Numbered from the stretch's first letter, positions 30,427 to 49,225 are shown. The stretch is DNA of 64,000 nucleotides from an uncultured bacterium (GCA_965372795.1 CBDVDR010000002.1:32001-96000); one strand, 5' to 3'. Numbers and translations are program-made. Notes: generated by a model from the letters alone, not told the origin.

Positions 30427-30450
30427 AACAGACTCTGCTAACTATCGGGA

Positions 30451-31422: not shown

Positions 31423-31426
31423 CTAC

Positions 31427-33596: not shown

Positions 33597-34756
33597 TTTT
33601 CCAACCATGATTTTGAGTAATTTTCATCAATTGTCTTTTTGACATTCATAGTCGGAAGGAGAGGTGCAAAGGTATCGACCATCACAGCCCACTCATTGGT
33701 CTCTTTGGCGCCAACCGAATCTTCCGTCCTGCCCGGTTGCGGACCATGAGGCATTCCCGATGGATGTAAAGTTATCGAGCCTTCCTGTACCCCTTTCCGA
33801 GACATGAAGTCACCCTCTACATAATAGAGAACTTCATCGCTGTCAATATTGGAATGGAAATAAGGTGCCGGAATTGCATCAGGATGGAAATCAAATGGTC
33901 TTGGCACAAAATTACAAATCACAAAATGCTCGGTGACCCAGGCAAGGTGCACCGGCGGCGGTAAATGGATTCTGGCGACTTTGGCATGGTAATTCTTGAT
34001 ATTAAATGCATAAGGATACAAATACCCGTCCCAGCCAATAACATCAAACGGATGATGAGGGGAGATATGCTCAAAAAAACGGTCGCCCGCTTTCACAATT
34101 ATCTCAAAATCACCCTTTTCATCAATCGGCTCAAAATATTCAGGCAGTTTAAAATCACGCTCCGAATAAGGCGCGTGTTCTTCCATCTGACCATAATTAT
34201 TATGGAAATGATTAGGTATCTCAAACGGCGTTGATGATTCCACAATCAACAGTTTATTATTTTTATAATTATCAAACTTCATCTGATAAGTTGTTGTGCG
34301 GGGCACTATTATCTGGTCACCTTCGACGAATTTTAGTTTCCCGTACTCGGAAATAAATTCTCCTGAACCATGATGAATAAAAATATACTCACTCGCATAA
34401 GCATTACGGTAAAACCTCTCCGTAGCTTCGGTCACTTTAGCCGTCAGCATCGTACAATGACTATTGGTCAAATACCTTTCCCGCGATGAAATAAAATCAC
34501 CCTGCTGATCAAGCTTTTCTGTAAAACAATGATAATAATTTACTTCCGCTTCTGACCAGCTATCATCTTTCCCTAAGGCTAATTCCTTGACACTTTTCAA
34601 TGCCGTCGGCAGATAAATATGATACTTAGTCGAATAAATCCCCGAGAAACCCTTGCTCGAAACTAACTCTTCCCGATAAAGTGACTTCCCGTCATCCTTA
34701 TAAAAGGTCGTATGTTTTACTTTGGGAATCTTTCCCAATTTATGATAAAATGGCAT
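33593..34756 (-). CDS. hmgA: Homogentisate 1,2-dioxygenase
   Basis: HHPFDVIGWDG, IHLPPPVH, PYFHSNIDSDEVLYY, TLHPSGMPHGP. Confidence 0.93.
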   Translation of the reverse strand: MPFYHKLGKIPKVKHTTFYKDDGKSLYREELVSSKGFSGIYSTKYHIYLPTALKSVKELALGKDDSWSEAEVNYYHCFTEKLDQQGDFISSRERYLTNSHCTMLTAKVTEATERFYRNAYASEYIFIHHGSGEFISEYGKLKFVEGDQIIVPRTTTYQMKFDNYKNNKLLIVESSTPFEIPNHFHNNYGQMEEHAPYSERDFKLPEYFEPIDEKGDFEIIVKAGDRFFEHISPHHPFDVIGWDGYLYPYAFNIKNYHAKVARIHLPPPVHLAWVTEHFVICNFVPRPFDFHPDAIPAPYFHSNIDSDEVLYYVEGDFMSRKGVQEGSITLHPSGMPHGPQPGRTEDSVGAKETNEWAVMVDTFAPLLPTMNVKKTIDENYSKSWLEK

Positions 34757-34777
34757 TATTAAATCCTTTTAAATGTT

Positions 34778-35917
34778 TTAACAGGGGGGAAGAACGTCTT
34801 CCGGTTTCAAACCCAAATTACCGCGAAGTTTTTGATCTAACTCGATAGATTCAAACAGAGACTGGAAATTCCCTTTCCCAAATCCCATCGAATTTCCTTT
34901 ACGTGAAATAAATTCAAAAAAGAATGTCGGTCGGTCCCCAATCGGTTTGGTGAACAACTGCAACAGATACCCATCCGATTCCTTATCACATAAAATCCCT
35001 AACTTCTGAAGGTCATCGATGCTTTCTTCAATATTCAAATCCTCACGCGCCCGAAGCATATCAAAATAAGTGTCCGGGATATGTAAAAACTCAACTCCGT
35101 TTTTGCGAAGAGCGCTGATTGTCTTGACAATATCATGAGTCCACACCGCCACATGCTGAATCCCCGAACCATAATACTGCTCAATATATTCTTCGATTTG
35201 TGATTTTTTGATCCCCGAATATGGCTCATTAATAGGGTTCTTAATCTTAAAATCTTTAGTCCGAACCACTTTGGAAAGCAACGCCGAGTATTTGGTCCCG
35301 ATATCCCCGGGTCCAAAATCCACAAAGGTCTCAAAATTCATCGTCTTATTAAAATAATCCGCCCACATATTCATCTCGTTCTCACGAACATTCCCAACAA
35401 TATGATCAATCCCCATAATACCCGTATCTTCCGATTTAATCTCAATCTTCTGAATCGGTTCACAATATTGAGGTTTAAAAATATAATCATAGTTATCATA
35501 GTTGATATAAACTATCTCAGAATCATCATAAATCCGAATCGCCGCTTCCATCACATAACCATGAGTATCCTCGATCTTCTCAGGACGTTTCACCATGATT
35601 GCCCCGTGCGAAGTCGCATAATTAAACGCCTGTTCAACATCATCAACCTCAATCGCCCATCGTTTCACCCCATCGCCATGACGGGTAACAAAATTTGAAA
35701 CCTCATAATTATCCGGCTGAACCGCCGAAGTTATAACAAACTTCAGATTGTTTTTGGTCAAATAATAAGAAATCCGGTCGCGTACTCCGGTTTCAGGACC
35801 CATATATCCGGTTATCTCAAGCCCCAACGCTTTGGCAAACCAGTAGGCGGTCATCTTTGCCGAACCGACATAAAACTCGATATAATCGTATTTTCTGATA
35901 TTTAATTGGTCAGACAT
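34778..35917 (-). CDS. hppD: 4-hydroxyphenylpyruvate dioxygenase
   Basis: HGDGV, DHIVGN, PINEP, SQIEEY, GIQHVA, LLQLFTKP..RPTFFFE, GFGKGNF. Confidence 0.96.
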   Translation of the reverse strand: MSDQLNIRKYDYIEFYVGSAKMTAYWFAKALGLEITGYMGPETGVRDRISYYLTKNNLKFVITSAVQPDNYEVSNFVTRHGDGVKRWAIEVDDVEQAFNYATSHGAIMVKRPEKIEDTHGYVMEAAIRIYDDSEIVYINYDNYDYIFKPQYCEPIQKIEIKSEDTGIMGIDHIVGNVRENEMNMWADYFNKTMNFETFVDFGPGDIGTKYSALLSKVVRTKDFKIKNPINEPYSGIKKSQIEEYIEQYYGSGIQHVAVWTHDIVKTISALRKNGVEFLHIPDTYFDMLRAREDLNIEESIDDLQKLGILCDKESDGYLLQLFTKPIGDRPTFFFEFISRKGNSMGFGKGNFQSLFESIELDQKLRGNLGLKPEDVLPPC

Positions 35918-36150
35918 AACTCCCTCTATGTTTTAATTCTCTAATTATACTTTAAATCTAGAATTTAATTTTAAAGTATATAATTTTCTCTGATTGATAT
36001 AACAGCCTTTGACTGTTTTAGTTCAAAAATGTATCAGAAAAGTATAAAAAAGAGCCCCTCAAAGCAACGAAAACAGTAATAATAGAGCTATAAGCTCTAC
36101 GAAACTTATCTTCTATGAAACCTGCCATTTATTATTCAATTGTCTCTTGA

Positions 36151-36224
36151 GTAGGTCAGGAGCCCTGCGCTCCTGACATCTTGATTCCATTTTTTAACTG
36201 GGTAGCCCACCCCTTGGGGTGGGT
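36151..36224. repeat. Two GTAG-initiated REP-like hairpins
   Basis: GTAG-GTCAGGAGC-cctgc-GCTCCTGAC (36151-36177) and GTA-GCCCACCCC-tt-GGGGTGGGT (36202-36224). Confidence 0.55.
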
Positions 36225-36369
36225 TTCTATTCAAGCTCAAAACCCAAATATCCAAATTTCGCCAGAGAAAAACACACACAAAGTATGCGTAAGTATACGA
36301 AGTGCGTGTGCAAAATCCACATCAAATCATTGGTCATTCAAAACTCAACCCCTATTTAAAAAGGCTATC

Positions 36370-37629
36370 ATGAAAATCTTCAACCGAAAAAACAAACCAC
36401 AAAAAAACTCAATCTTAACTGACAAAAATGCCCGAATCGACCCGGTCACAACCAAAACTTTCAAACCCTTTAAAAAGTTTGAAAAATCAATCAAATTCGA
36501 ACCAAAAGATATCCATTCCGGTCGTTACAAAGTCCAACTCTACCGCTTCTTATCCGACAATATCCCCGTCGTCAACGCCTGTGTCTGGACCTGGGTTCGC
36601 CTCGCCGCCGCCAAAGGTAAATTTACAATTTCCAATAATCATAAATCATCCGACAACGTCCTTGCTTGCCTTGACGATCTCTCAAAAAACATCTATTCCA
36701 ATATCTCCGGCAACCGCACCGGACTCGTCTCGTTCTTAGTTGACCTGTTTGAATATCTTTTCCGCGATGGTTTCTTCGGCGGCATCCTGACCGTCAACCC
36801 GGACTACTCCGGCGTCGACCAGTTCATTCTCCTTGACCCTGCTAAAATTTCCCTTAATCAGGACGCTACTCCTAATAATTTACTATTAGAGAATAATGGT
36901 AAATATGTTACCCTGAACCGTCCCGATTTCTACTATATCCCTCTTAGCAACAGCCGTATCTATCCGCTCGGCCGATCAATCCTGCAAGCCATTCCGTTCA
37001 TCAGCTATATCGAGCAACAGCTTGTCGATGACATGCGCCGATCAAGTCACAACAGCGGTTTTCACAAACTCCATGTCAAAATAACTCCGCCCGAAAGATT
37101 CGCCGGTGAATCCGAAACCGGTTATGTCAACCGCATCAACAACTATTTCGATTCAACCGTCAGCATGATCAAAAGCTGCGAGGTTGACGAAAACCCCGTC
37201 ACCTGGGACAACGTCTTAATCGAATCCATCGGACCCGACAACGCCCGTTCGGTTTCCAACAGCTGGTTCATGAACCACCGTGCTATGGTCGAGGAAATCT
37301 GTGCCGGAACCAATCTCGCCCCGTTTCTGCTCGGCTATTCCTATGGCGCCACCACTACCTGGTCCGGTTTCAAATTCGACATGGTCATGCGTCAGATCAA
37401 ATCCATCCAGCATGAAATCGCCCACTTCCTCGAATGGATCGGCAATATCCATCTGGCTCTCTCAGGTTTTGATTCAAAATGTAAATTCGAATTCGACAAC
37501 ACCTTTCCATATCAGGCCAACGAAATTGCCACCGTCAAAACCTCCCAGCTTGATAACCTGCTCAAACTATATGACAAAGGCTTACTGGAAAAAGATGTCA
37601 TCTCTCAAAAAGCACAGGAGTTGATATAA
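36370..37629 (+). CDS. Phage-type portal protein
   Basis: Likely start ATG 36370 (419 aa). YRFLSDNIPVVNACV, YPLGRSILQAIPF and EEICAGTNLAPFLLGYSYGATTTW are portal-like; lies directly before TerL. Confidence 0.7.
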   Translation: MKIFNRKNKPQKNSILTDKNARIDPVTTKTFKPFKKFEKSIKFEPKDIHSGRYKVQLYRFLSDNIPVVNACVWTWVRLAAAKGKFTISNNHKSSDNVLACLDDLSKNIYSNISGNRTGLVSFLVDLFEYLFRDGFFGGILTVNPDYSGVDQFILLDPAKISLNQDATPNNLLLENNGKYVTLNRPDFYYIPLSNSRIYPLGRSILQAIPFISYIEQQLVDDMRRSSHNSGFHKLHVKITPPERFAGESETGYVNRINNYFDSTVSMIKSCEVDENPVTWDNVLIESIGPDNARSVSNSWFMNHRAMVEEICAGTNLAPFLLGYSYGATTTWSGFKFDMVMRQIKSIQHEIAHFLEWIGNIHLALSGFDSKCKFEFDNTFPYQANEIATVKTSQLDNLLKLYDKGLLEKDVISQKAQELI

Positions 37630-38972
37630 ATAATTTAATAAATACTGTCAATTGGCACCGTTGTCTGACCGAGCCGGATTACTTTGCGAAGGAAATCCTG
37701 AATGTAACCCTGCATCCCGGGCAAAAAAAATGGCTCGAAAACTCTAACGAAAGAGAAAACCTGCTCGTCACCGGTAACCGTTGGGGCAAATCATTTGTCT
37801 GTGCCATAAAAATAATTCATCATGCCCTGTTCCGTCCGCGTAAACTGAAATATGATTACTCCGGCAGATACAAAATTGTAACCGCCTCCATCACGCAGGA
37901 TCAGGCAAATATTATTTTTACCCAGATCATTCGCTTTCTCAACAGTTCCGATTTCCTCGGATCATTGGTTGAATCGCACACTAAAACCCCGTTCCCGCGA
38001 CTGCAATTTTCAAACGGTTCCACAATTGAAGCCCGCTCAACCCAGAACAGGGGAGAGTACCTGCTCGGCAACGACTATGACCTGTTCATCTTTGATGAAG
38101 TCGCCTTTGAAGCCGACCCCGAATATGTCGTTGAAGAAATCATCCAGATGCGTCTCGCTGACCGGGAGGGCAAACTTGATCTGGTCAGCACTCCCAACGG
38201 CAAAAACTGGTTCTACAAAAAAGCTCAGGATATTCTGTCAAAAAAATTCCCCGGCTATTACCAATCCGGCGACAGCCGCGAAAATAAATATATCTCACAG
38301 GAATTCCTTAACGACCGGGTCCTTCATTTTTCCGAAAAAAGAATCCAGCAAAACATCATGGGACAATTTGTCGATACCGGCGGTGAAATCATCAAAGGTT
38401 CCCATATCGACCGGGCGCTTGAGGGGTTCGCCGATTTTAAAAATCAGCTGAATCAGATCGACCCTTTCCATATCCCATACTACCTGTCCGGCTGGGACCT
38501 CGCCCGCAAAAAAACCGCCACCGTCGGAGTTACCGTCCAGATAATCGGCGACAAAATTTATGTCGTCGATCTCGAACGCTTCAAAATGTTTGACTGGAAT
38601 GTTGTCACCGAAAAAATCCGTATCCGCCAGAGAAAATACCCCGGCCGATTGATTATTGATGCTACCGGCTTAGGCGATGTTGTCGTCGAACAATTAAGCG
38701 ACTTCAACCCCGAGCCCGTTATCTTTACACCCTCAACCAAAGCTGAAATGCTCACCAATGTTGAACTGCTCCATGCTCAAAACCGGATCTTCTACAAAAG
38801 ATGGGAGCTTCCCGACGGGGCGGGTAAAATATGGTCGCTTGAGGATGAACTTAGGCAGGCGCGGTGGGATTCTAATAATCAGTTTGATTCGTTAATGGCG
38901 TTGGCTTTGGCAGTATGGTGCCTTAGAAAAAGAGACCGAATCTCTCCGGCACCAAAATTTGGAACAATATAA
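37626..38972 (+). CDS. Phage terminase large subunit with apparent non-canonical ATA start
   Basis: The frame of ORF 37965 is open upstream to 37575 and encodes LHPGQKKW and Walker A TGNRWGKS (37770-37793). Walker B FIFDEVA, STPNG, and nuclease motifs GWDLA, IDATG and FDSLMALALA follow. 448 aa from ATA 37626. Confidence 0.88.
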   Translation: MNNLINTVNWHRCLTEPDYFAKEILNVTLHPGQKKWLENSNERENLLVTGNRWGKSFVCAIKIIHHALFRPRKLKYDYSGRYKIVTASITQDQANIIFTQIIRFLNSSDFLGSLVESHTKTPFPRLQFSNGSTIEARSTQNRGEYLLGNDYDLFIFDEVAFEADPEYVVEEIIQMRLADREGKLDLVSTPNGKNWFYKKAQDILSKKFPGYYQSGDSRENKYISQEFLNDRVLHFSEKRIQQNIMGQFVDTGGEIIKGSHIDRALEGFADFKNQLNQIDPFHIPYYLSGWDLARKKTATVGVTVQIIGDKIYVVDLERFKMFDWNVVTEKIRIRQRKYPGRLIIDATGLGDVVVEQLSDFNPEPVIFTPSTKAEMLTNVELLHAQNRIFYKRWELPDGAGKIWSLEDELRQARWDSNNQFDSLMALALAVWCLRKRDRISPAPKFGTI

Positions 38973-38978
38973 TTTATA

Positions 38979-39317
38979 TCAGGATTTTGTCTTTGTATTA
39001 GAACGAGCCATATACATAGCACTCAATCCGGCGGCCATTATAATTAATGTCCCCGGTTCCGGCACAGGTGAGGTCGGATCAGGATCTGTAGGCGGTGTCT
39101 CAGGAATTATAAGCTCATCGGTTCCTTGAGAAGTAAGCAGGTCTGATTGAGTTGTACCCTGAGTTGCGCTTTTCTGAGTTGTCTGGCTGGGGCTCTTTGA
39201 TGGTGGAATATTAACACCTTCGACCTCATCAAAAGTGATAGTCATGGCTAACACAAAAACCAGTATGGCTACAAACCATTTAAGGGGCTGAGTTGCATTT
39301 CTTTTATAAACTGTCAT
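38979..39317 (-). CDS. Small PEP-CTERM sorting-domain protein
   Basis: Signal peptide, S/T/P/Q-rich linker, VPEPGTLIIMAAGLSAMYMARSNTKTKS; likely start 39317. Confidence 0.85.
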   Translation of the reverse strand: MTVYKRNATQPLKWFVAILVFVLAMTITFDEVEGVNIPPSKSPSQTTQKSATQGTTQSDLLTSQGTDELIIPETPPTDPDPTSPVPEPGTLIIMAAGLSAMYMARSNTKTKS

Positions 39318-39555
39318 TTTCTTAATCCTTATTTTATTGTCTTCAAGCCATATTAAAGCAAAGTCTGTGCCTCTTGAGTTTATATTTATATAACTCATAT
39401 AAGAGTTTATGCCTCAACAACATAAATTCAACTAAAAAATATAAAATTATCTATGCTGCAAAACATATAGGTAATCCATTGCGCAAAAAAAACGTAACAA
39501 TAATGGTCTTTTATAAACCGTCCCTAATTAATAAAAACACTAACCGGGAGAATAT

Positions 39556-40962
39556 ATGACTGAAATATTAGGCAAAATTACTGCCCAATTAGCCGATTCA
39601 ACCGATTCTATGAAAACCATTGAACTGGTTGACCTCATAAATAACAATATAAATCCACCCCAAAAAGTTACTCCTGATGATATCCATATCAGAGCCATGT
39701 ATATTGCCTCTGACCAAATCAACAGTTTTGGAGGAAGGTTCCCTGTTGAAGAACTTACTAACTTGTCCGGATTACTGATTGACTCACCCGTTTTAGTAGG
39801 ACATCGTAAAGATAAATTACCGATTGGGCGTAATTTCCATGCCATCACCGAAGTCAAAAACAATAAAAACTGGGTCAAATCATATTTCTACTGGCTCAAA
39901 TCTGCCGATCAGTCAGAAAACCTGAAACAAAACATAGATGGGGGTATTTATAAAGAATGCTCAATCGGCTTTACTTTCCATTTTGCCGAATGTTCCGTCT
40001 GTGGAAAAGATATCAGAACCTGCTCCCATGAACCGCTCCAAAAGATTTCTAACCGGTCGGTCTATTTTAATTACCGCAAAATCGGAAAAGTCTTGGAAAC
40101 TTCCTTAGTCTATCGCGGGGCGGTACCAAACACTTCCGTCACCAAAGATTTACAGATTGATTATGATAAAACCCTCCGGTTAATCAACCCCGACAATTTT
40201 AAAGATTCCCGGTATCTGATAACCCCGCTGTACGATGGCATCATCCTGTCGGTCTCCAATGAAAATTCAAAACTGATCTTCAAAAACCTCGATGGAACCA
40301 GGCTTATCTCATCCCGTTTAAGTCTGCTCGAAAATCTGAACCTCCCGAATCTGAAAAATAAATTCGGGCTTCTGGTCGGTTATCGGGGGAAAGAAAGATG
40401 CTCCGCCCACCAGCTTGAACGATACTTGAAAAAAATATCCTCTCCCGTGACCCATCTCGAATTTAAAATTATTCCCCACGAAGTTGAAAGCACGCCAGAA
40501 ATTTCCCATGAATCTCTAAAAGATAAAATTAAACCGATCAAACATCACTGGGCAAAAAAAGATGAAATCCTCATAACCTGTAAAAAAATATCAACCAAAG
40601 CAGGCGTTAAAATATGGAACGAATCCCGATTACTGCCTGACTTTACCGGACACACCTTTAAACCTGATAAAGTAAATCAAAATCAAAAAGTAAACTGCTC
40701 CTACGACCCGACGAGTACAAAATTAAAAATCAATCACAACGGCACACCGCATTGTTTCCATATAAATAAATTAAACCTGAAAAGTTTATTGAATGGAATA
40801 AAATTTATTGCTACCCCGAGTTCCGAATTGGTAGAAACGATGCCTCACGAATTAAATCTTGAAGGACATCTCAACGGCAAATTTCTACTCCGTCCGATAC
40901 GAATAAAACAAAAACAACTGTTTCTGTTTTACAAAGCCGTCGCTTCTATTCCCCAAGGCTAA
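39556..40962 (+). CDS. HK97-type prohead protease with a long C-terminal extension
   Basis: PVLVGH, NIDGGIYKECSIGF, CSVCG..CSH insert and LETSLVYRGA in the N-terminal ~200 aa. Confidence 0.7.
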   Translation: MTEILGKITAQLADSTDSMKTIELVDLINNNINPPQKVTPDDIHIRAMYIASDQINSFGGRFPVEELTNLSGLLIDSPVLVGHRKDKLPIGRNFHAITEVKNNKNWVKSYFYWLKSADQSENLKQNIDGGIYKECSIGFTFHFAECSVCGKDIRTCSHEPLQKISNRSVYFNYRKIGKVLETSLVYRGAVPNTSVTKDLQIDYDKTLRLINPDNFKDSRYLITPLYDGIILSVSNENSKLIFKNLDGTRLISSRLSLLENLNLPNLKNKFGLLVGYRGKERCSAHQLERYLKKISSPVTHLEFKIIPHEVESTPEISHESLKDKIKPIKHHWAKKDEILITCKKISTKAGVKIWNESRLLPDFTGHTFKPDKVNQNQKVNCSYDPTSTKLKINHNGTPHCFHINKLNLKSLLNGIKFIATPSSELVETMPHELNLEGHLNGKFLLRPIRIKQKQLFLFYKAVASIPQG

Positions 40963-41689
40963 GGGTGTCGATCAAACTAAGAGTCCGCTTAAGCGGACCA
41001 CCCGATATATTTTGCTGAACCAAGCCGAGATGAGGTGCATAATATTCACGGATTTTTATTACCGGAGTTCCGCTGTAATCATTTTCAAAAAGATCAACAT
41101 CAAAGCGATAGGTGTCGAACTCTCCGGCGGGAACCTGAAGCCGCTCTATCCCGATAAACCGCTTTTGGAAATGGAAACCAAAATATGAATTATAAAAAAT
41201 TCTGGTGCTGTCGCCGGCGGCGGGAGGGTAGTAGCCCGTCCAGGTTGTGTCTTCAACTATAAATCTTGGAATAATCATAGGGGGAACTGAAAAATATACT
41301 AATGAATCAAGATCATTATTCTTCGTCCAATAGCCATTCTGAAGGATCGAAAATTCACTCACCTTATAATTACTCATCGGCGTACCGTTTTTTTTGATTA
41401 TCCAATCGGTGTTGGAACCGCTGAAACCAATATTGAGAAAGGAAGTTATAACATTTACATCATAAACATCATCAAGGGTCGTCACCGTATCAATCTGCAT
41501 ATAACTGAAAGTCCTGCTGTTGGCTAAACCTAACAAACTCAACCCATCAGGATATTCCGACTCAATCGGATCATCATCCAGGTTAGTGTCGGTAATTAGA
41601 ACATTATCTTCACTGCAGCCCCAGATTATAAGGAACGCTAAGATACAAACTATAAAAGCTGAATATTTCCTAAACATAAAATCCTCCAT
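40946..41689 (-). CDS. Lipoprotein
   Basis: Lipobox LIIWGC; ERLQVPAGEFDTY and YYAPHLGLV motifs typical of small beta-rich lipoproteins. Confidence 0.75.
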   Translation of the reverse strand: MEDFMFRKYSAFIVCILAFLIIWGCSEDNVLITDTNLDDDPIESEYPDGLSLLGLANSRTFSYMQIDTVTTLDDVYDVNVITSFLNIGFSGSNTDWIIKKNGTPMSNYKVSEFSILQNGYWTKNNDLDSLVYFSVPPMIIPRFIVEDTTWTGYYPPAAGDSTRIFYNSYFGFHFQKRFIGIERLQVPAGEFDTYRFDVDLFENDYSGTPVIKIREYYAPHLGLVQQNISGGPLKRTLSLIDTLSLGE

Positions 41690-41749
41690 TAGTATTCTAA
41701 TACTAAAAAGAATTTTTCTATAAAACAGTCAACAAAAAAGAGAATTACA

Positions 41750-42058
41750 ATGATGAAAAAGATTTTTGAGATCATCAAACAATGTAACCCGATTATAAAT
41801 ATCGCAACTATCACTTTTGGCGTCATCGCCGCCTATTTCATGACTATCCAATCCTTAAAACTGGAACTGGCAGAGAAAGCCGAAGAAAGAGTCGTCGAAA
41901 CCCTCGACAAAAAACTTAGTAATTTAGAGGTGATCCTAAAAGAAGGGGTAATTAGTAAAGAGGTCTTTTTAAAATTCTCAAACGATATGAACAATAGATT
42001 ATCAAGAATTGAATTTTATCTAACCGATAAACCGGGAGTAAAAATTGAGCAAAAATGA
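41750..42058 (+). CDS. Small single-TM coiled-coil protein (holin-like size)
   Basis: One hydrophobic helix IINIATITFGVIAAYFMTI followed by a coiled coil. Confidence 0.55.
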   Translation: MMKKIFEIIKQCNPIINIATITFGVIAAYFMTIQSLKLELAEKAEERVVETLDKKLSNLEVILKEGVISKEVFLKFSNDMNNRLSRIEFYLTDKPGVKIEQK

Positions 42059-42452
42059 ATCGAACTATCAAAAGCTTATTGAAAACACTATCGCCGAATT
42101 AACCGCCGAAAACTTCGCTGAAATTGATTTTGATAAACTAATCAAGCTCCTCGCCAATCTGAAATCAAAAATCAATTCCGCCATAATCCTTGAAGAAAAC
42201 CATAAAATCCTGCAAACCGATTATATCGCCCGCATCTCCGGTATGCTAAAAGCGATTGCCGTTGTTAATCACAGCCGGGAAAAAAATGAAAACATTCTAA
42301 AACTTATAGAATCCCTGTCCGGCTTGGATGCTCTCTCGTTAACCGGATGCTACCGGAAAGTTTCAGCAAAATTTCGTGAGGCTTTCCCTACAAGTTTCGG
42401 ACTTGTTGATCATATTTATAAACCGAAACTGAATTTTAATCAATACAAATAA
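42045..42452 (+). CDS. Helical hypothetical protein, possibly capsid scaffold-derived
   Basis: GGGAG RBS plus TTG; alpha-helical; lies just before the decoration and capsid genes. Confidence 0.5.
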   Translation: MSKNESNYQKLIENTIAELTAENFAEIDFDKLIKLLANLKSKINSAIILEENHKILQTDYIARISGMLKAIAVVNHSREKNENILKLIESLSGLDALSLTGCYRKVSAKFREAFPTSFGLVDHIYKPKLNFNQYK

Positions 42453-42526
42453 AGAGGGATCATTATCCCGATCATGAGGGAAAATTCATTCCCGATCTGT
42501 CTTAACTAAAAAACAAAAGGAATTAT

Positions 42527-42946
42527 ATGACTGTTCGTGATCATAATCTCGAAACTGTAGCGCCCGTTCTTGCCACCTTTAAAATCTCCCAGACTGCAAA
42601 TGTCGATGATTTAAAAGATACCAATCTGGGCGAACCGGTTGAATTAACAGCCGGAAATACTGTCGGACCAATCTCTGCCGGAAATCAACTGCTCGGTAAA
42701 TTGATTAGTCTCACCCTGAATGATAACGATGATGGCGACCGGCTCGCTACCGTCCAAATCGGCGGCGTCTGCCGTCTGGCTGTCTCATCCACCTATCCTG
42801 TTGTCGGCAACAAAGTAGTCGGCGGAACCGCAGGAACTGTTAAACAATCGCCAACCGTCGCCTCAGACCCCGCCGGTGGAAATATCGCGCGCGGGATTGT
42901 CGTTGATGTCAACGGTACTGCTGATTGCTTAATCTACTTGAATTAG
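42527..42946 (+). CDS. Putative head decoration/cement protein
   Basis: 139 aa, Gly/Val/Thr-rich beta protein (ATVQIGGV, VGGTAGTVK) immediately before the capsid gene. Confidence 0.55.
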   Translation: MTVRDHNLETVAPVLATFKISQTANVDDLKDTNLGEPVELTAGNTVGPISAGNQLLGKLISLTLNDNDDGDRLATVQIGGVCRLAVSSTYPVVGNKVVGGTAGTVKQSPTVASDPAGGNIARGIVVDVNGTADCLIYLN

Positions 42947-42958
42947 AAAGGAAAAATA

Positions 42959-44062
42959 ATGGACTTTAATCAATTTCTGGATCTTCCGGCTCTGTCAGCC
43001 ATGAACAACAGCTCCGATCAAAATCTCCCAATTTCAAACCTCGATTTTGAACGAGCCGCCGCCATCGAATTAAACCGTCAATCCTATCAGGAAGCTGACA
43101 CCCGCGGGATGACACTCTCGGAACTGCTCGAAACCGATGAATACGACCCGTCCCTACCCGGAAGCTCCCTTGATGCTTTCGAACGCCAGCTTGCCCTCTC
43201 CGGCATAAAAATCAACGGGAAATCTCCGACTACGGTCGAACAGTTCTTCCAGCAGGCTCCGGCTCTGCTCCCTGAATTTATGCTTCGTGAAATAAAAAAG
43301 GGGATGGCGATGCGTCCCGAATTAAACCGCTTGGTTGCCAACTCAACCACTATCGCGACCAACAAATACACGCCCTTTTTTATCGACACCTCCGATAATT
43401 CCAAATTTTCACTAAGACCGGTCGGCGATGGTGCCGAAATACCGCAACTGATCGTCACCGAACAAAACCATTCGGTCAACGTCGTTGACTACGGCTTGGC
43501 TTTGAAAGCCAGCTACAAATCCCTCCGCTACCGCACGACCTCACAATTCAGAGTCCTGCTCTGGTACATCGGTTTTAAAATTCAAACCGATAAAATCGGG
43601 ATGCTTGTCAGCACCCTCATCAATGGCGACGGCAACAGCAACTCCGCCGCGATTGTCAATACTTCCGCTTCCGGCACCCTCGACTATGATGATCTCGTCA
43701 GTTTGTGGGCGCAATTCTCACCTTTCGAAATGAACACCCTTATCTGCCATATCGACCAGATGAAAACCATTTTGAAACTGAACGAATTCAAAGACCCGCT
43801 CGCCGGATTCCGTTTCCAAAAAAGCGGCGAACTGTTTAATCCGCTCGGTGCCTTATTGGTGCGCTCTGATGAAGTTCCCTCAGACAGTGTTATCGGCCTC
43901 GATAACCGCTTTGCTATTGAGGAGGTCATCACCCAGCCACTAATGGTCGAATATGACAAAATTATCGAACAACGCTTTGAAGAAGCGGTCATCACAGAAT
44001 CGGTTACCTATGCCAAAGTTATTAAAGAAGCTTCGGTTATGCTCGATTCGGTCTGGACTTAA
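42959..44062 (+). CDS. HK97-fold major capsid protein
   Basis: DAFERQL, VGDGAEIPQ, YGLALKASY, LINGDGNSNSA, LMVEYDKIIEQRFEEAVIT; 367 aa; synteny with portal, TerL and protease. Confidence 0.8.
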   Translation: MDFNQFLDLPALSAMNNSSDQNLPISNLDFERAAAIELNRQSYQEADTRGMTLSELLETDEYDPSLPGSSLDAFERQLALSGIKINGKSPTTVEQFFQQAPALLPEFMLREIKKGMAMRPELNRLVANSTTIATNKYTPFFIDTSDNSKFSLRPVGDGAEIPQLIVTEQNHSVNVVDYGLALKASYKSLRYRTTSQFRVLLWYIGFKIQTDKIGMLVSTLINGDGNSNSAAIVNTSASGTLDYDDLVSLWAQFSPFEMNTLICHIDQMKTILKLNEFKDPLAGFRFQKSGELFNPLGALLVRSDEVPSDSVIGLDNRFAIEEVITQPLMVEYDKIIEQRFEEAVITESVTYAKVIKEASVMLDSVWT

Positions 44063-44070
44063 ATAAATAT

Positions 44071-44309
44071 GGGCTCGGTTTATCTGAAACTCAGACTAAT
44101 GACAAAACACTATTTCGTCATCTCAAACGAGAATTTCGTCGTCTCATACGGAGTATCTCGTCATCTCGAGCGGAGTATTTCGCCATCTCAAGCGGAGTAT
44201 TTCGCCATCTCGAGCGGAGTATCTCGTCATCTCGAGCGGAGTCGAGAGATGAATTTTATGAATAATGATTTTGTCAACAATCTCAAACTCGGTTTACCGA
44301 GCCCTTTTT
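44071..44309. mobile_element. MITE-like insertion with internal 22-bp tandem repeats inside a terminator hairpin
   Basis: Imperfect TIRs AGACTAATGACAAAACACTATT (from 44093) and AATAATGATTTTGTCAACAATCT (to 44283); six ~22-bp units at 44112-44242; outer GGGCTCGGT...ACCGAGCCC-TTTTT. Confidence 0.5.
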
Positions 44310-44322
44310 AAAAAGGCTTAAT

Positions 44323-45732
44323 ATGAAGAAAAAAATAACTCAATCAACAGCAACCTTCACCCTTGGACTATCAAAAGGAAACAAACTTTTCAAAATCCCA
44401 TCGGGGGAGTATGCCGGTCGCATGATCATGATCTTAAAAAACAGTCCGGCAAACATCAAATTCTCTTACGCCGACTCACCCGGTAACATCTGGTCGACTC
44501 TGACAACCATCACTACCGACTCATCCGACACCGACTTTGATGCGGCGATGGATGAAAACGGTCATATCCACGTCGTTTACTCCGACTCCAACAATTTTCT
44601 TATCTACCGCAAACTAACCTTTACCGCCGGAAACTGGACGGTGGGCAATGCCGGCACGGTTTACAGCACCGATCCTTCTTACTACCCGTCAATTGTCCTC
44701 GAACCAACGGGAAAACTTTGGATCGGATGGACCAAGCTCGTCGATGGCTCACGCTACCTTTGCGTTAAATCCTCAACCGACTCCGGAACAACCTGGGGCA
44801 GCGGACCATCAGATGATGGCGAACTGCTTACCGGACCATTACCCGCTGTCTACCCAAAACTTATTATTGGCGCCGGAAATCTCCATGCCATTTACGCTGA
44901 CGGCACCTCTGAACTGGCGGTCAAATCATACCCGATTGAGGGGGGAAGCTGGTCGGCAAAAGTTTTAATCGCCTCCGGATCAGAATTGGACAACAACTTT
45001 GACGCCGCCCTCTCTACCGATGGGATGCTTGGCGTTGTCTTTGATGATAATGAACTCAAATACCGCGAGTTCGACGGCTCCAACTGGAGTGCCATCACAA
45101 ATCTTGACTCAAACGAAGGCTTCATGCCCCAGCTCATCTTTATCAACAACGTGCCATACGTTATCTACACATCCTATCTTTCCGACAGCGAGTACATTTT
45201 AAAATATGTCAGCCGGAAAAGCGGAAGTTTCTCCCTGCCTGCTCTCTTTGATCCTTCGGCAAAAACTTTCGACTCCGTCCAGCTTTACAACTCTGTCTCA
45301 GCAACCTATGAAAACCTGACCTCCGAATCGGAAAATTCAACCACCGCCGATATTTATCATTCATCCTCAAACGGACTGCTTAAAAATATCGGTGATGCTC
45401 TATACCTGGGGATGAATCTCAAATTCCGCTACCTCTATTTTAACCTGTTTACAGCCGGAACCGGCGGAGCCGTCATCTTCAGCTACTGGGATGGTTCCAA
45501 CTGGAAATCGTTCACCCCCGAAGACGGCAATTATAATTTAGATGCTTCTGAAAAGAAACTGATTCTTTTTGATGACCAACAAACCATCCCGCAGGACTGG
45601 CAAAAATCATCTATAAATAATTCCGATAACTTCTGGATCAAAATAGAAACGGTTACCGCCTACGCAACTGCTCCGGTCGGAAATAAAATTTCTGCCGTTT
45701 CTGACATTCATGCTTTTTCGGTGAGGAGGTAA
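44323..45732 (+). CDS. BNR/sialidase-like beta-propeller protein, putative virion-associated
   Basis: SSTDSGTTW Asp-box; GHIHVVY; repeated xDGSNW motifs; no signal peptide. Confidence 0.55.
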   Translation: MKKKITQSTATFTLGLSKGNKLFKIPSGEYAGRMIMILKNSPANIKFSYADSPGNIWSTLTTITTDSSDTDFDAAMDENGHIHVVYSDSNNFLIYRKLTFTAGNWTVGNAGTVYSTDPSYYPSIVLEPTGKLWIGWTKLVDGSRYLCVKSSTDSGTTWGSGPSDDGELLTGPLPAVYPKLIIGAGNLHAIYADGTSELAVKSYPIEGGSWSAKVLIASGSELDNNFDAALSTDGMLGVVFDDNELKYREFDGSNWSAITNLDSNEGFMPQLIFINNVPYVIYTSYLSDSEYILKYVSRKSGSFSLPALFDPSAKTFDSVQLYNSVSATYENLTSESENSTTADIYHSSSNGLLKNIGDALYLGMNLKFRYLYFNLFTAGTGGAVIFSYWDGSNWKSFTPEDGNYNLDASEKKLILFDDQQTIPQDWQKSSINNSDNFWIKIETVTAYATAPVGNKISAVSDIHAFSVRR

Positions 45733-45735
45733 TTA

Positions 45736-46548
45736 TTGTCCTATACCAACAAAGAAATTGTTAAAAGTTTTCTGGTGGAATCGCTTCCGTTATTTGCCCG
45801 GGTTGTCAACCAACCGGTTACTTTAATTGATGATGATTACGTCAGCTTCTTTAACCGATCAATTGAAAGCTCATCGGTCATTGTTAAAAACTTAAAAAGC
45901 AATGTCTACACCCGATCTTCTTTGACCCTTAATGCCAGCACCGTAAACTTTTCATCAATACAAGTCGTCCCCGAATCAGTCGTTGTTTCAAACAACAGCT
46001 CGCTCGGAATAATTTATATCGAAAATTCTGATTTCATCATTGATTATCAAAACGGAAATTTAACCATTAAATCTAATAGCCGTCTCCAATTAAACCAGCC
46101 CGTTACAATTTGGTACCAGACCTTTCATATTTATACCAACACCTCCGATTACCAGATTGATTCCGTCAATGGGAAAATTAAAAAAGTCCCTTCCGGTTCA
46201 ATCGCCGCCGGTGAAACCGTCTATCTCGATTATACTCCCTTAAGTGCTACCTACAACGAGGAACTAATCGAAAACTCAGTCTTCACCGCCAACGGTTTGA
46301 TCGAAAAGGAAGTGGACCCCGAAGCTTCTTTCGGAGCCGACCTGACTCTTCAAACAGCGGCAACTTTCAAAGCTCTCGAAATTATCTGTCATGCCTCCGT
46401 TTTAAGAGAACTATCCTCAAATTCATTCGCCGATAAAAAATCATCCGACTGGATAAAACTGGGGGAGATCTATCGCCAGAAATCGGAAGAACTGATCAAA
46501 AAATTCCGCCCGCCTTTCAGTCCGGCTAAATCACCGACCCATAGTTGA
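45736..46548 (+). CDS. Putative head-completion/adaptor protein with inserted beta-sandwich repeats
   Basis: GAGGAGG RBS. MSYTN N-terminus and helical C-terminus resemble head-tail connectors; two internal DY/DF-xID-xxNG repeats. Confidence 0.45.
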   Translation: MSYTNKEIVKSFLVESLPLFARVVNQPVTLIDDDYVSFFNRSIESSSVIVKNLKSNVYTRSSLTLNASTVNFSSIQVVPESVVVSNNSSLGIIYIENSDFIIDYQNGNLTIKSNSRLQLNQPVTIWYQTFHIYTNTSDYQIDSVNGKIKKVPSGSIAAGETVYLDYTPLSATYNEELIENSVFTANGLIEKEVDPEASFGADLTLQTAATFKALEIICHASVLRELSSNSFADKKSSDWIKLGEIYRQKSEELIKKFRPPFSPAKSPTHS

Positions 46549-46558
46549 GGAGTAAATT

Positions 46559-46933
46559 ATGAACAATGCCCTAAACGCTGTTAAATCAAAAAGAATATGG
46601 TTCATCCCCGATTTCTCAACCTGGGGAGTATCTCAGGAAGCCGAAATAGATTTTGCTCTGGTCGAGGGAGTCGACTCCGAACAAAATCTTTTCTACGGCA
46701 ATCAACCGATTGGCGCCTCGCTGCAAAAGGTAAATTTCTCAGACCTCGTCGATCACAGGGGAAACCCACTGCCGGCTGAAATAGATTCACCCAAAGTCAT
46801 CCCCCGGTCAAAAACTTCCGAACCGATTTTTATTGTCGGCAAAGAATCCTCAAACGATTTCAATATTGCCCGAAGTCATGAATCTTCAGGACCCGTTCCC
46901 GGGGATCTGATGATTATCGAAATGGGCAGTTAA
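46559..46933 (+). CDS. Hypothetical protein of the phage-like operon
   Basis: GAGGAG RBS; co-directional and tightly packed. Confidence 0.7.
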   Translation: MNNALNAVKSKRIWFIPDFSTWGVSQEAEIDFALVEGVDSEQNLFYGNQPIGASLQKVNFSDLVDHRGNPLPAEIDSPKVIPRSKTSEPIFIVGKESSNDFNIARSHESSGPVPGDLMIIEMGS

Positions 46934-47311
46934 ATGACTAAAAAGAAAAAACGAAAAAGGAAAGAGAAAAAGAAAAAAGCCCAACAGGAAAAAACAGAAA
47001 AACAAAAAGAACAAAAATCTAAAACCTTAGCTAACTACATCGAAGTTGTTGATGAACTGATATTCGAATATTACGAAGGACTTATTAAAAGCATTAGAGA
47101 ACTTGAAATTTATAAGTTAGGAGAATTTGTTAAAATGGTTGAATTAAAAAGAAAAATCAGCCCCGCCGATGCCGACCAGAAAAAGTTCTGGAATAAAATC
47201 CAAATCGTCCGTCAAAAAGCTCTGAAAGAAAAAGATGAACAGCGTCCAGCTGATAAAGATGCTTCCAATTCCATCGTCACAAAAAATACAAACGAAGCCA
47301 ACCCCCAATGA
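46934..47311 (+). CDS. Lys-rich basic small protein, possibly nucleic-acid binding
   Basis: MTKKKKRKRKEKKKK N-terminus followed by a helical core. Confidence 0.6.
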   Translation: MTKKKKRKRKEKKKKAQQEKTEKQKEQKSKTLANYIEVVDELIFEYYEGLIKSIRELEIYKLGEFVKMVELKRKISPADADQKKFWNKIQIVRQKALKEKDEQRPADKDASNSIVTKNTNEANPQ

Positions 47312-48069
47312 TCAAACTGATCAAATTCATTATCCTCGCTTTAATATTATTGGCTTCCAATTCTTCGGCATCGGTTGACACCCTTTCTGATACTACCGAA
47401 ATCTATGATGGAATAATCTACTCCTATGCCAATTGCAACTCGGATGTCAATAATGAAAATTGCCGGCGTTATAACGGCGGCAAGGTTGTCAACCTCTCGA
47501 TTGGGTTGAAAGATATTGATGATGAAACCAGAGCCTTATTCATGATCCCGGGCTGGGATGGCACCCTGCCTGACTCGGCAAAGTTTGAAATCTTCTGCTA
47601 TTTGGAAACTGATGCTGTCGACCGTAAATTTTTCATTTACCCGCTCACAAAACAAATTTATGAAGGCACCGAAAATGGCTACAATATTGGGGGATACCCC
47701 GAACCCGACAGCGGTGCAACCTGGTCTCATGCCTGGCTGGATGTTGGCGATAATGATTCCTTAAACTGGACGACCTCCGGCGGTGACTATCTAACTGCTG
47801 TTGCCTGCACTGCCTTAGTCACCCATGAAAACGATTATTTTTCATTTCATAACTTTGAACGAATACTGAACTATTGGGACACCTCGGGCAATAATTACGG
47901 CTTTATAATGATCAATCAAAATTCATTCCCCAACCTCACTTCATCAAAAATTATTCGTTCAAGCGAGGGACCAACCGCAACCGTTCCCAATCTGCTGCTT
48001 TTTTATGCAGATTCGGTTAACTATAATTACAGGAGGAGACAAATTGTCAATCATCTGCTTAATAAATAA
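47308..48069 (+). CDS. Secreted DNRLRE-like beta-sandwich protein
   Basis: Signal peptide; RRYNGG...TRALF...GATW...WTTSGGDY...NYGFIM...SSEG..VPNL. Confidence 0.6.
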   Translation: MIKLIKFIILALILLASNSSASVDTLSDTTEIYDGIIYSYANCNSDVNNENCRRYNGGKVVNLSIGLKDIDDETRALFMIPGWDGTLPDSAKFEIFCYLETDAVDRKFFIYPLTKQIYEGTENGYNIGGYPEPDSGATWSHAWLDVGDNDSLNWTTSGGDYLTAVACTALVTHENDYFSFHNFERILNYWDTSGNNYGFIMINQNSFPNLTSSKIIRSSEGPTATVPNLLLFYADSVNYNYRRRQIVNHLLNK

Positions 48070-48073
48070 GATC

Positions 48074-49225
48074 ATGAAAAATTTAATTATTATTATTTTT
48101 ATCTTTATCCATTGTTCGGTTAGTGCTGCAATCGTCCGCAATAACACCGGCACCGTCACCTCGCATGACTCCTTGTCATTTCTATTTTATGCTGTCGATT
48201 CGCTCGGCAATCCCACCACCGCCGACTCATTATTTATCGTATCAACAAATCCCGGTGGAACGATTGCCTATAAAGATTCGATGGCAATCTCAAACAGCCG
48301 GATCAGATCTACCACCATCAGATCAAAACAATTCTATTCCTTTTCTGATCAGGTTTCAAATCTGGATGGTTCCGGTAATCAGGGCGTCTATTCATTAACT
48401 CTGCTGGCATACCAAAGCAGCCAAAGTTTACTGACCCCAAATAATTTTACTTTCCAGATTATTTCATCTGAGTTCTCCCGTCAAATTGCCTCAATCAATG
48501 ATTCGGTCAACATCAAAGGCGGCATCATAGATTCAACCATGATTGCCGCCTCAGTCTGGAATGCTCCCCAATCCAATCATACTATAAACTCAACCTTTGG
48601 AAAATATCTGGACTCTGAGATTTCAGGGCTGACCTCCGGTTCGGGAGCCTTCTCCGTCAAACTGGTTACCATTGATTCTTCCACAAACCAGATGATCCCC
48701 GGAACCAATCTTACCATTCGAAACTTGATGCAAAATTCTCTGATTGCTATTGGAAATACTAATTCCAACGGAGAGGCATCTTTTAACTTAGATGCTGACA
48801 GTTTTACCGTCATACCAATTTTACATGGATATATCTTTGAACCTTTTGATACTTTGGTGATAACCGGATCAACAACGGATACTTTGTTGGCTCATAAATT
48901 TAATCCCGGAACTCCGGCCTCACCCGCTTTGTGCCGGATGTATGGCTGGGTTTTTAATATCGATGGCACCGTTGCCAACAGCACCGTAATTACCGCCTCG
49001 ATTCCTGCTGTAAATGTTACTTACTTAAATTCTGTAATCTCAACCCAGGAAATCACAACTGTGACAGATTCAGCCGGATATTTTTATCTCGATCTGATCC
49101 CTTCGAATTTACTGACCCCGGTTGATTCAAAATATGAAATTACAGTCAGCCGTAAAAACGGATCGATCATGAGAACGAGAATACTGATCCCCGAATTAGG
49201 GAGTTGGATGTTTCAACCTCAATAA
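48074..49225 (+). CDS. Secreted multi-domain beta-rich protein with carboxypeptidase-regulatory-like domains
   Basis: Likely start ATG 48074 with signal peptide; IAASVWNAPQSNHTINSTFGKYLD; TNSNGEASFNL; TDSAGYFYLDL. Confidence 0.6.
   Translation: MKNLIIIIFIFIHCSVSAAIVRNNTGTVTSHDSLSFLFYAVDSLGNPTTADSLFIVSTNPGGTIAYKDSMAISNSRIRSTTIRSKQFYSFSDQVSNLDGSGNQGVYSLTLLAYQSSQSLLTPNNFTFQIISSEFSRQIASINDSVNIKGGIIDSTMIAASVWNAPQSNHTINSTFGKYLDSEISGLTSGSGAFSVKLVTIDSSTNQMIPGTNLTIRNLMQNSLIAIGNTNSNGEASFNLDADSFTVIPILHGYIFEPFDTLVITGSTTDTLLAHKFNPGTPASPALCRMYGWVFNIDGTVANSTVITASIPAVNVTYLNSVISTQEITTVTDSAGYFYLDLIPSNLLTPVDSKYEITVSRKNGSIMRTRILIPELGSWMFQPQ

Follow-up and report, generated by a model that had tools for sequence, protein, structure and literature searches.

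The 64,000-nucleotide stretch of DNA analysed here (the window, to which all positions refer) belongs to contig 2 of a metagenome-assembled genome of the Zixibacteria (3.35-Mb assembly, 98.65% complete; labelled G000, with genomes and loci of this analysis carrying the prefixes G and L, respectively), and at 36370–49225 it holds a row of phage-type head and DNA-packaging genes. We regard this row as probably a domesticated, vertically inherited and phage-derived head and packaging cassette, similar to a gene transfer agent (GTA) and either tailless or short-necked; its conversion into host genes ahead of the diversification of the known Zixibacteria, with vertical descent since then, is the best explanation of the data. 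Apart from two antisense genes within the row, all of the genes lie on the plus strand, and they encode, in order, a portal protein, the large terminase (TerL), proteins of 468, 102, 135 and 139 aa, the major capsid protein (MCP), and proteins of 469, 270, 124, 125, 253 and approximately 384 aa. The cassette is single-copy, its gene order and its setting among host genes are kept, its genes are under purifying selection, the motifs of its terminase are conserved and it has no close phage relative in the collections searched. A preliminary description of this DNA had placed portal, TerL, protease-like, decoration-like, capsid and adaptor-like genes where we find them, and family or fold matches now bear out these names, with the protease as a candidate. 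It had also recognized no integrase, repressor, replication, tail tube, tape-measure, baseplate or endolysin gene, and the wider scans agree: no protein of the module matched any of these functions, or a tail sheath, in Pfam, PHROGs, NCBIfam or PADLOC, the PADLOC scan gave only two chance-level matches, and the window contains no tRNA gene or Rfam match.

The distribution of the cassette was followed through its MCP, which is present in 38 of the 41 genomes nearest to G000, in 135 of the 151 genomes of a class sample (113 of the 118 of high quality) and in 192 of the 201 genomes of a phylum sample with at least 90% completeness, where it occurs in 102 of 107 genera. All genomes of the phylum sample are labelled as belonging to the same class or closer, so that the sampled phylum amounts to one class. 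Genomes nearly always have a single match, and pairs of matches are mostly pieces at contig ends. The identity of the MCP to that of the window falls with taxonomic rank, from 82% within the genus to 67–77% within the family, 61–71% within the order and 53–65% in other orders. The public records that bear it are from Candidatus Zixiibacteriota, and several of them are closed chromosomes of 2.6–4.0 Mb.

Gene order was compared among 32 loci from Zixibacteria, each 15 kb or longer. TerL was found in 26 and the portal in 25 of them, some of the loci being cut by contig ends before these genes. The order is identical throughout, except that the gene for the 124-aa protein stands ahead of that for the 270-aa protein in the most distant families. 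The host genes to the right are often kept as well, namely a dockerin-type gene (19 loci), followed by lipA and by a response regulator gene with an HD domain of the HD-GYP type, while on the left the relatives have a gene for a TPR protein in 16 loci, accompanied in nine by a gene for a PEP-CTERM protein; the window has a tyrosine operon there instead. A fixed position between host genes at such a depth of divergence argues for vertical descent rather than repeated integration. Co-divergence with the host was examined by a Mantel test of protein distances against those of LipA (13 loci, 78 pairs, 2000 permutations), and the Pearson correlations were 0.71 for the MCP, 0.70 for the portal and 0.69 for the 469-aa protein, with none of the 2000 permutations as high, and 0.51 for the 139-aa protein, with four permutations as high; given the non-independence of related genomes, these values indicate a trend and are not a proof. 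The conjecture of a domesticated module kept by vertical descent, for which the preliminary description had proposed a search for the same syntenic module in relatives, is thus upheld by the near-universal MCP, the kept order and, in many loci, the kept flanks.

The most distant families, with the 124-aa gene ahead of the adaptor gene, are represented by loci L060, L062, L066, L067, L069 and L070. Most of these also have a gap of approximately 0.4–0.5 kb between the portal and TerL genes, and in several the distance from TerL to the protease-like gene is approximately 1.5–3.5 kb.

Comparison of the window with its nearest available relatives shows saturation at synonymous sites, and the ratio of nonsynonymous to synonymous substitutions (dN/dS) was therefore determined by the Nei–Gojobori method for the three closest pairs among the relatives (dS 0.4–1.3). 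Every module gene measured gave a value between 0.03 and 0.22: 0.03–0.09 for the 139-aa protein, 0.05–0.10 for the MCP, 0.045–0.085 for the portal, 0.04–0.09 for TerL, 0.07–0.09 for the 469-aa protein, 0.08–0.09 for the 270-aa protein, 0.08–0.15 for the 124-aa protein and 0.07–0.09 for the exported protein at the end of the row. The 468-, 102-, 135- and 125-aa proteins lie between 0.09 and 0.22, with 0.09–0.13 for the 102-aa protein and 0.22 for the 135-aa protein in the sole close pair that has the gene. Measured against the window, the dN of the MCP, TerL and the 139-aa protein (0.15–0.29) is below that of the adjacent housekeeping gene lipA (0.28–0.38). The values near 1 that the preliminary description had named as a sign of a decaying prophage were therefore not seen.

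Losses do occur. The MCP is missing from nine of the 198 high-quality genomes of the phylum sample, and five of these nine were examined. Two, G116 and G044, have no TerL and no credible match to the 469-aa protein. A third, G024 (L091, G024:C4), runs from the portal through TerL and the PEP-CTERM gene into the front part of the protease-like gene and from there directly into the rear of the last gene, a clean internal deletion. In the other two, G080 (L092, G080:C12) and G139 (L093, G139:C10), the portal and TerL genes are open and housekeeping genes come next, gyrB and def/fmt in one genome and uvrD and fpg in the other. No MCP or 469-aa protein was found anywhere in the genomes of G024, G080 and G139. 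The genus-mates of G080 have the MCP, so its loss must be recent, and the existence of such losses in good genomes indicates that the cassette is dispensable, as GTAs are.

The large terminase (37626–38972 with the start proposed below; the frame is open from 37575) matches Terminase_6N over positions 2–213 of 215 (E 2.2e-13) and phrog_2 (E 8e-22), and it is the only Terminase_6N match in G000. In an alignment of 15 sequences, from the phylum and from a prophage relative, the Walker A motif GNRWGKS and the Walker B motif FDE are invariant or nearly so, as are STPNG, GWDLARK, IDATGLGD and the C-terminal Asp of NNxCD; the conserved acidic residues in the C-terminal half presumably form the nuclease site, as such residues do in large terminases. 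The conservation of both ATPase and nuclease motifs across the phylum suggests that TerL packages DNA. The preliminary description had called the gene intact, and this holds for the domain and its motifs but not for the start, since the first ATG, GTG or TTG of the frame, at 37965, lies downstream of Walker A. What the frame does have, within 37616–37629, is an ATA (37626–37628) overlapping the TAA stop of the portal gene (37627–37629), with AGGAG 5 nucleotides upstream. The same overlap of portal stop and TerL frame, as ATAA or ATAG, is found in 13 of the 26 loci with TerL (L021, L027, L031, L033, L036, L037 and L057 among them), with a GGAG-like stretch just upstream; eight of the 13 have no canonical start ahead of Walker A, and three further loci have CTGA. 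We suggest that TerL is translated by termination-coupled re-initiation at a weak near-cognate codon, which would keep the terminase low relative to the portal. Because the start-less state is itself conserved across loci, the missing start is not a mark of decay.

The portal protein (419 aa, 36370–37629) matches phrog_3753 (E 1.3e-17) and phrog_30703 (E 5e-11). The MCP (367 aa, 42959–44062) matches phrog_3922 (E 1e-66) and, just above its cut-off of 27, PF25209 (27.1 bits), and it is present in all 32 loci. It is preceded by a decoration-like virion protein of 139 aa (p139, 42527–42946), which matches phrog_4588, a family described as a virion structural protein (E 1e-7), and which has orthologs of 45–79% identity in 31 loci. 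The 468-aa protein (39556–40962; 31 of 32 loci) had been named a prohead protease. It matches phrog_16951 (E 8e-15), a family without an assigned function and the only one that it matches, with no Pfam or PDB sequence match. Its first 200 or so residues are conserved and contain invariant His83 and Ser136 as well as a Cys/His cluster (Cys146, Cys149, Cys156 and His158), whereas the C-terminal half varies and distant families are without it. Homologs of the N-terminal domain are unannotated; none of the 120 matches listed has a Pfam domain, and in this search and in that for the 124-aa protein the organisms named are Zixibacteria, with two rows given only as ‘bacterium’. The His/Ser pair resembles the motif of the HK97-family prohead proteases, and from motif and position we consider the 468-aa protein to be a putative protease-like head maturation protein. 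The protease activity implied by the earlier name is likewise putative. Between this gene and that of the decoration-like protein are two small genes without family matches. One encodes a 102-aa protein (p102, 41750–42058; orthologs in 31 loci) that consists of a single hydrophobic helix and a tail resembling a coiled coil, and the other a 135-aa helical protein (p135, 42045–42452; 23 loci), a candidate scaffold protein by its position.

The 469-aa protein (44323–45732; all 32 loci) gave an AlphaFold2 (AF2) model of high confidence (pLDDT 90.7), comprising a β-propeller with an Asp-box followed by a C-terminal β-sandwich. In searches with VIA the model resembled the bacterial PLL lectins most closely (Z 27.4, root-mean-square deviation 2.4 over 285 residues), followed at Z 25.5 by a polysaccharide lyase and at Z 22–24 by glycoside hydrolases. 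Foldseek returned sialidases (4e-11) and a portal–tail chain of phage LME-1 (1e-10), a profile search of the PDB matched 4irt (E 2e-5), and a Foldseek search against viral models gave many propeller proteins, none of them specific. The protein has no signal peptide and would thus be able to join a particle in the cytoplasm.

The neighbouring 270-aa protein (45736–46548; all 32 loci), positioned like its neighbour after the MCP, gave an AF2 model (pLDDT 84) in which one helix from the N-terminus and three from the C-terminus surround an inserted β-sandwich. A wide VIA search against 48,161 representative chains gave 50 rows, of which at least 20 were phage neck, adaptor or connector chains; these occupy the top of the list and include T4 gp13 (Z 9.7), the Mu neck (9.2), phiCD508 (8.8), P74-26 (8.8), SU10 (8.5), HK97 gp6 (7.8) and the RcGTA virion (6tba_2A, 7.4), and the alignments to solved necks span residues 1 to approximately 260 of the model. 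The Atlas leads, all below 0.9, were Phage_Gp19, a gp6-like connector and the SU10 adaptor; Foldseek against the PDB found only weak matches to the inserted β-sandwich. The prevalence of neck chains and the Atlas leads point the same way and, at the level of the predicted fold, we assign this protein as a head-to-tail adaptor of the HK97 gp6/T4 gp13 type. A prediction of its complex with the propeller protein gave no answer (score 0.00, below the mark).

The two genes that follow are small. The 124-aa protein (p124, 46559–46933) is present in all 32 loci and is a neck candidate by position; its family has 260 members, and among the 120 listed there is no Pfam domain, and all organisms named at that level are Zixibacteria. 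It gave no usable ESM Atlas match, and neither it nor the adaptor showed profile similarity to the two 115-aa proteins encoded after the protease in the prophage L079 (see below). The 125-aa protein (p125, 46934–47311; 21 of 32 loci) has, in an alignment of 17 sequences, a conserved core, helical character and Lys/Arg-rich tails, with no family match, and may be a DNA-binding protein or a small terminase. Profile searches of the PDB returned nothing usable for the protease-like protein, the adaptor and the 124- and 125-aa proteins, and no match for the 139-aa protein.

The row ends with two genes for exported proteins, and the signal peptides that the preliminary description had reported for them appear, by eye, as signal-peptide-like N-terminal segments. 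The first encodes a fast-evolving protein of 253 aa (47308–48069) and its start overlaps the stop of the preceding gene; the second encodes a protein of approximately 384 aa (48074–49225; 29 of 32 loci), with an open reading frame (ORF) that opens at 48005 and a likely Met start at 48074, which is 5 nucleotides after the stop of the first. Both genes therefore belong to the operon. At the place of the 253-aa gene, at least one ORF of 165–702 aa or more was found in all 19 loci examined, with two in one locus, and nearly all of the encoded proteins have a basic-hydrophobic N-terminus resembling a signal peptide, again by eye. BLAST ties them to the copy in the window in only seven of the 32 loci. 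A DNRLRE domain was matched by five of nine tested, three above the cut-off, and CBM96 by four of 12 at E ≤ 0.01, two above the Pfam cut-off; the window copy matched neither. An alignment of 19 sequences of the last protein shows a middle part that varies between a hydrophobic N-terminus and a conserved C-terminal half; the latter has two β-sandwich domains of CarboxypepD_reg-like type (PF13620, 28.1 bits in the window, which is below the cut-off, and 39.7 bits in L036). Proteins exported by the Sec route cannot be built into a head in the cytoplasm, and these two must therefore act at or beyond the envelope; a role in release, in the handling of extracellular polysaccharide or in docking would be a guess.

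Close relatives among complete phages, which would have spoken for a prophage, were not found. Among the 50,697 phage records of INPHARED there were five matches to the MCP, all unannotated gut contigs of 32–37% identity, and IMG/VR gave 12 loci of 31–38%; the best phage match of TerL, at 27%, is from a Thermus phage. With one genome per species, the nearest MCPs outside the Zixibacteria are at 18 loci of Oscillospiraceae or Clostridia (L073–L090), with 34–36% identity. These prophages, together with the gut phage contigs, hold the closest homologs of the MCP, the portal and the phrog_4588 and phrog_16951 proteins. In L079 (8304–20833) the order is TerL, phrog_4588 (E 7e-19), MCP, portal and phrog_16951, followed by a tail sheath, a baseplate hub and wedge and an endolysin, so that L079 is a contractile-tailed prophage. 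The Oscillospiraceae prophages thus differ from the Zixibacteria cassette in possessing sheath, baseplate and endolysin genes and in having their own gene order (TerL, decoration, MCP, portal, protease), and no homolog of the propeller, the adaptor or the 124-aa protein was found in them. L079 adjoins ABC transporter genes and a gene for a RecD-like helicase.

Tail genes were sought across the whole of G000 with hidden Markov models (HMMs) of ten neck and tail families, built from 10–17 prophage loci and run against all ORFs of at least 50 aa. Nine of the HMMs had no match at E ≤ 1, and the tenth matched one protein with a lysin-type domain only; Phage_sheath_1 and PhageMin_Tail had no match either. 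A genome-wide search of this kind had been called for in the preliminary description, and it recovered no tail genes of the nearest phage relatives. The genome has four integrase matches, all on contigs other than that of the module.

Taken together, the genes suggest how the cassette might work. The portal, the protease-like protein, the scaffold candidate and the MCP would build a procapsid, decorated by the 139-aa protein, and TerL, its supply kept small through re-initiation at the weak ATA (or CTG) overlapping the portal stop, would fill it with double-stranded DNA. There is no recognizable small terminase, and packaging therefore probably does not select the DNA of the cassette. Closure of the portal would fall to the gp6/gp13-like adaptor, to which the 124-aa protein might contribute, and the lectin-like propeller, as a neck spike or on the shell, could give the particle an affinity for glycans. 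The product would be a tailless or very short-necked particle that takes cellular DNA out of its producer in the manner of a GTA. The two fast-evolving, Sec-exported proteins of carbohydrate-binding type would act outside the cytoplasm, either in release through the envelope and its polysaccharide or as surface partners for incoming particles. We infer the formation of the particle, its DNA cargo, its release and its uptake from the nature of the genes.

Several points weigh against a GTA-like cassette. Sec signal peptides on two genes of the operon are at odds with virion parts assembled in the cytoplasm. No lysis gene, small terminase or DNA-delivery device was recognized among the module proteins in the Pfam, PHROGs and NCBIfam scans, and we know of no way in which a head with an adaptor alone could inject DNA. 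With the response regulator as the host marker in place of LipA, the five loci that passed the length filter gave a correlation of 0.01 for the MCP (944 of 2000 permutations as high), and no protein was significant. The Z values of the adaptor, 6.5–9.7, are middling for helical folds on the scale of the tool, and the tail search spanned only a handful of families, so that a very different tail could be missed. Finally, approximately 5% of good genomes are without the MCP, and the portal and TerL genes are able to outlast the others, at least temporarily.

The capsid might instead be put to a use other than gene transfer, such as interference with phages by stealing or cutting their DNA, the export of DNA as matrix, or an envelope-tied container for protein or nucleic acid. 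The operon always ends with exported proteins of carbohydrate-binding type, PEP-CTERM and lipoprotein genes stand inside or beside it, the propeller has a fold that binds or cuts glycans, and no delivery device or lysis gene was recognized. However, selection maintains the portal and the adaptor as well as the ATPase and nuclease motifs of the terminase, which points to filled and sealed heads, and there is no match to a known defence family beyond the two chance-level hits; we consider such a use possible, if on the unlikely side. Rather unlikely, in our estimation, is a bolder form of the transfer hypothesis, in which the cassette would be an ancient, phylum-wide and truly tailless capsid machine working with the cell envelope: sealed, lectin-coated and DNA-filled heads, with the fast-evolving exported proteins as matching partners in release or docking at the cell surface, would serve a kin-limited exchange that is completed by the DNA-uptake machinery of the recipient.

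The cassette might also be the head half of a complete GTA or of a defective phage whose genes for tail, lysis and regulation lie at other loci, an arrangement known from some GTAs. The adaptor is consistent with this, as such a protein normally docks the tail in tailed phages, and so are the contractile tails of the nearest relatives and the three conserved small proteins without an assigned fold. Against it, no sheath or tape-measure family was matched in G000, and the nine neck and tail HMMs without a match, although they cover few families, were run on a genome that is 98.65% complete; a tail at another locus is decidedly unlikely.

Heads, packaging genes and an adaptor or connector without tails are also what is found in the capsid-forming satellites, the capsid-forming phage-inducible chromosomal islands (cf-PICIs), and the locus could in principle be one of these or make heads that borrow the tails of a helper phage. 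The cf-PICIs are mobile elements with integrase and replication modules and a patchy distribution, whereas the Zixibacteria cassette has no integrase, replication or regulator genes in or beside it and no tRNA or att-like feature, and it has been inherited vertically across the phylum, near-universally, in a fixed chromosomal context. We therefore hold a satellite to be very improbable. A decaying or cryptic prophage remnant without function is scarcely credible, since the partial deletions in a few genomes, the TerL of the window without a canonical start and the repeat insertion after the MCP gene, which might suggest it, are set against dN/dS values of 0.03–0.22 in all genes measured, frames that are open in nearly all of some 190 genomes, a gene order kept across orders and a start-less TerL that is itself conserved as ATA over the portal stop in 13 of 26 loci, and every test contradicts it. 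Gene content, distribution, dN/dS and the tail search speak equally against a functional prophage.

A domesticated, GTA-like cassette is thus the reading that we prefer, and with the GTAs it shares a chromosomal cluster of structural genes lacking replication, integration and lysogeny genes, vertical inheritance and purifying selection. Compared with RcGTA, it is likewise a phage-derived structural operon without replication or integration genes, inherited vertically over a large clade under purifying selection, and the alignment of the adaptor model to the RcGTA virion chain 6tba_2A (Z 7.4) is the sole link, a structural one at the level of the fold. The tail of RcGTA comprises a tube, tape measure, distal tail and fibres, whereas no tail family was found here; the capsid is of another family (phrog_3922, PF25209), the portal gene comes first and is followed by TerL, and there are a lectin-type propeller and two exported proteins. 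BaGTA, VSH-1, Dd1 and VTA resemble the cassette as independently domesticated GTAs or viriforms, and all of them are, to our knowledge, tailed particles; the GTAs that we know of come from a handful of lineages and are all tailed. The encapsulins, too, are host-owned shells of an HK97-type capsid protein, but they have no portal, terminase, protease or adaptor, whereas the Zixibacteria locus has a portal, a terminase, a protease-like gene and an adaptor, with the portal and TerL conserved, and it is accordingly not an encapsulin nanocompartment. Two papers (PMC11841831, PMC9953437) report repeated domestication of tailed phages, in lineages separate from one another. A full-text search of the published literature, with subscription journals and supplements outside its scope, found among the matches listed no GTA or capsid cassette of the Zixibacteria or of a near relative, in agreement with the statement in the preliminary description that none was known in this lineage.

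If the cassette has been kept for the whole history of the phylum, it would represent an independent and very old domestication of a different build, with no recognizable tail, a lectin-type propeller and exported partners, and it bears on the question of whether sealed heads alone can serve a cell. The Zixibacteria are a widespread uncultured phylum of sediment and groundwater, and the cassette offers a testable route into gene exchange in a group without a cultured member. There is also a practical consequence, in that virus-finding pipelines will meet a capsid, portal and terminase in nearly every Zixibacteria genome, and these should not be counted as prophages.

The two antisense genes within the row are of host type, as had been proposed. 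The first (38979–39398, minus strand) encodes a PEP-CTERM surface protein, which matches PF07589 with 22.4 bits (cut-off 20.7) and TIGR02595, shows the PEP motif, hydrophobic segment and basic tail at its C-terminus, and has a homolog at the same place in 15 of the 32 loci. The second (40946–41689, minus strand) encodes a lipoprotein of 247 aa with an IWGC lipobox, recognized by eye, and a weak DUF3108-like match; nine of the 32 loci have a homolog at the same place. The row had further been described as flanked directly by hppD and a dockerin protein. On the left, an hppD-type gene with a glyoxalase fold is indeed present, as part of an operon for the breakdown of tyrosine and homogentisate (28471–35917, minus strand) that abuts the portal gene and also contains acyl-CoA synthetase-like, flavin reductase, FAA hydrolase, aminotransferase and homogentisate-dioxygenase-like genes. 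The support on the right is less firm, as the 705-aa protein encoded there matches Dockerin_1 with 20.7 bits, under the Pfam cut-off of 22.9.

Between the MCP and propeller genes, where the relatives have merely some 40–50 nucleotides, the window has a tandem-repeat insertion (44066–44309), consisting of six 22-nucleotide repeats (44111–44242) flanked by a 14-nucleotide inverted repeat. The repeat unit is absent from 104 other loci, save for one weak single match, and is almost unique within G000. An 80-aa ORF that runs across the insertion has no homolog in the 32 loci and is unlikely to be a gene. At 36150–36240, in the 450-nucleotide gap that precedes the portal gene, there are two short perfect hairpins, GTCAGGAGC...GCTCCTGAC and CCCACCCC...GGGGTGGG; they have no Rfam match and are not conserved in nine aligned upstream regions. 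Over the 323 nucleotides upstream of the portal in these nine loci, the sole conserved element is a Shine–Dalgarno-like AAAGGAG.

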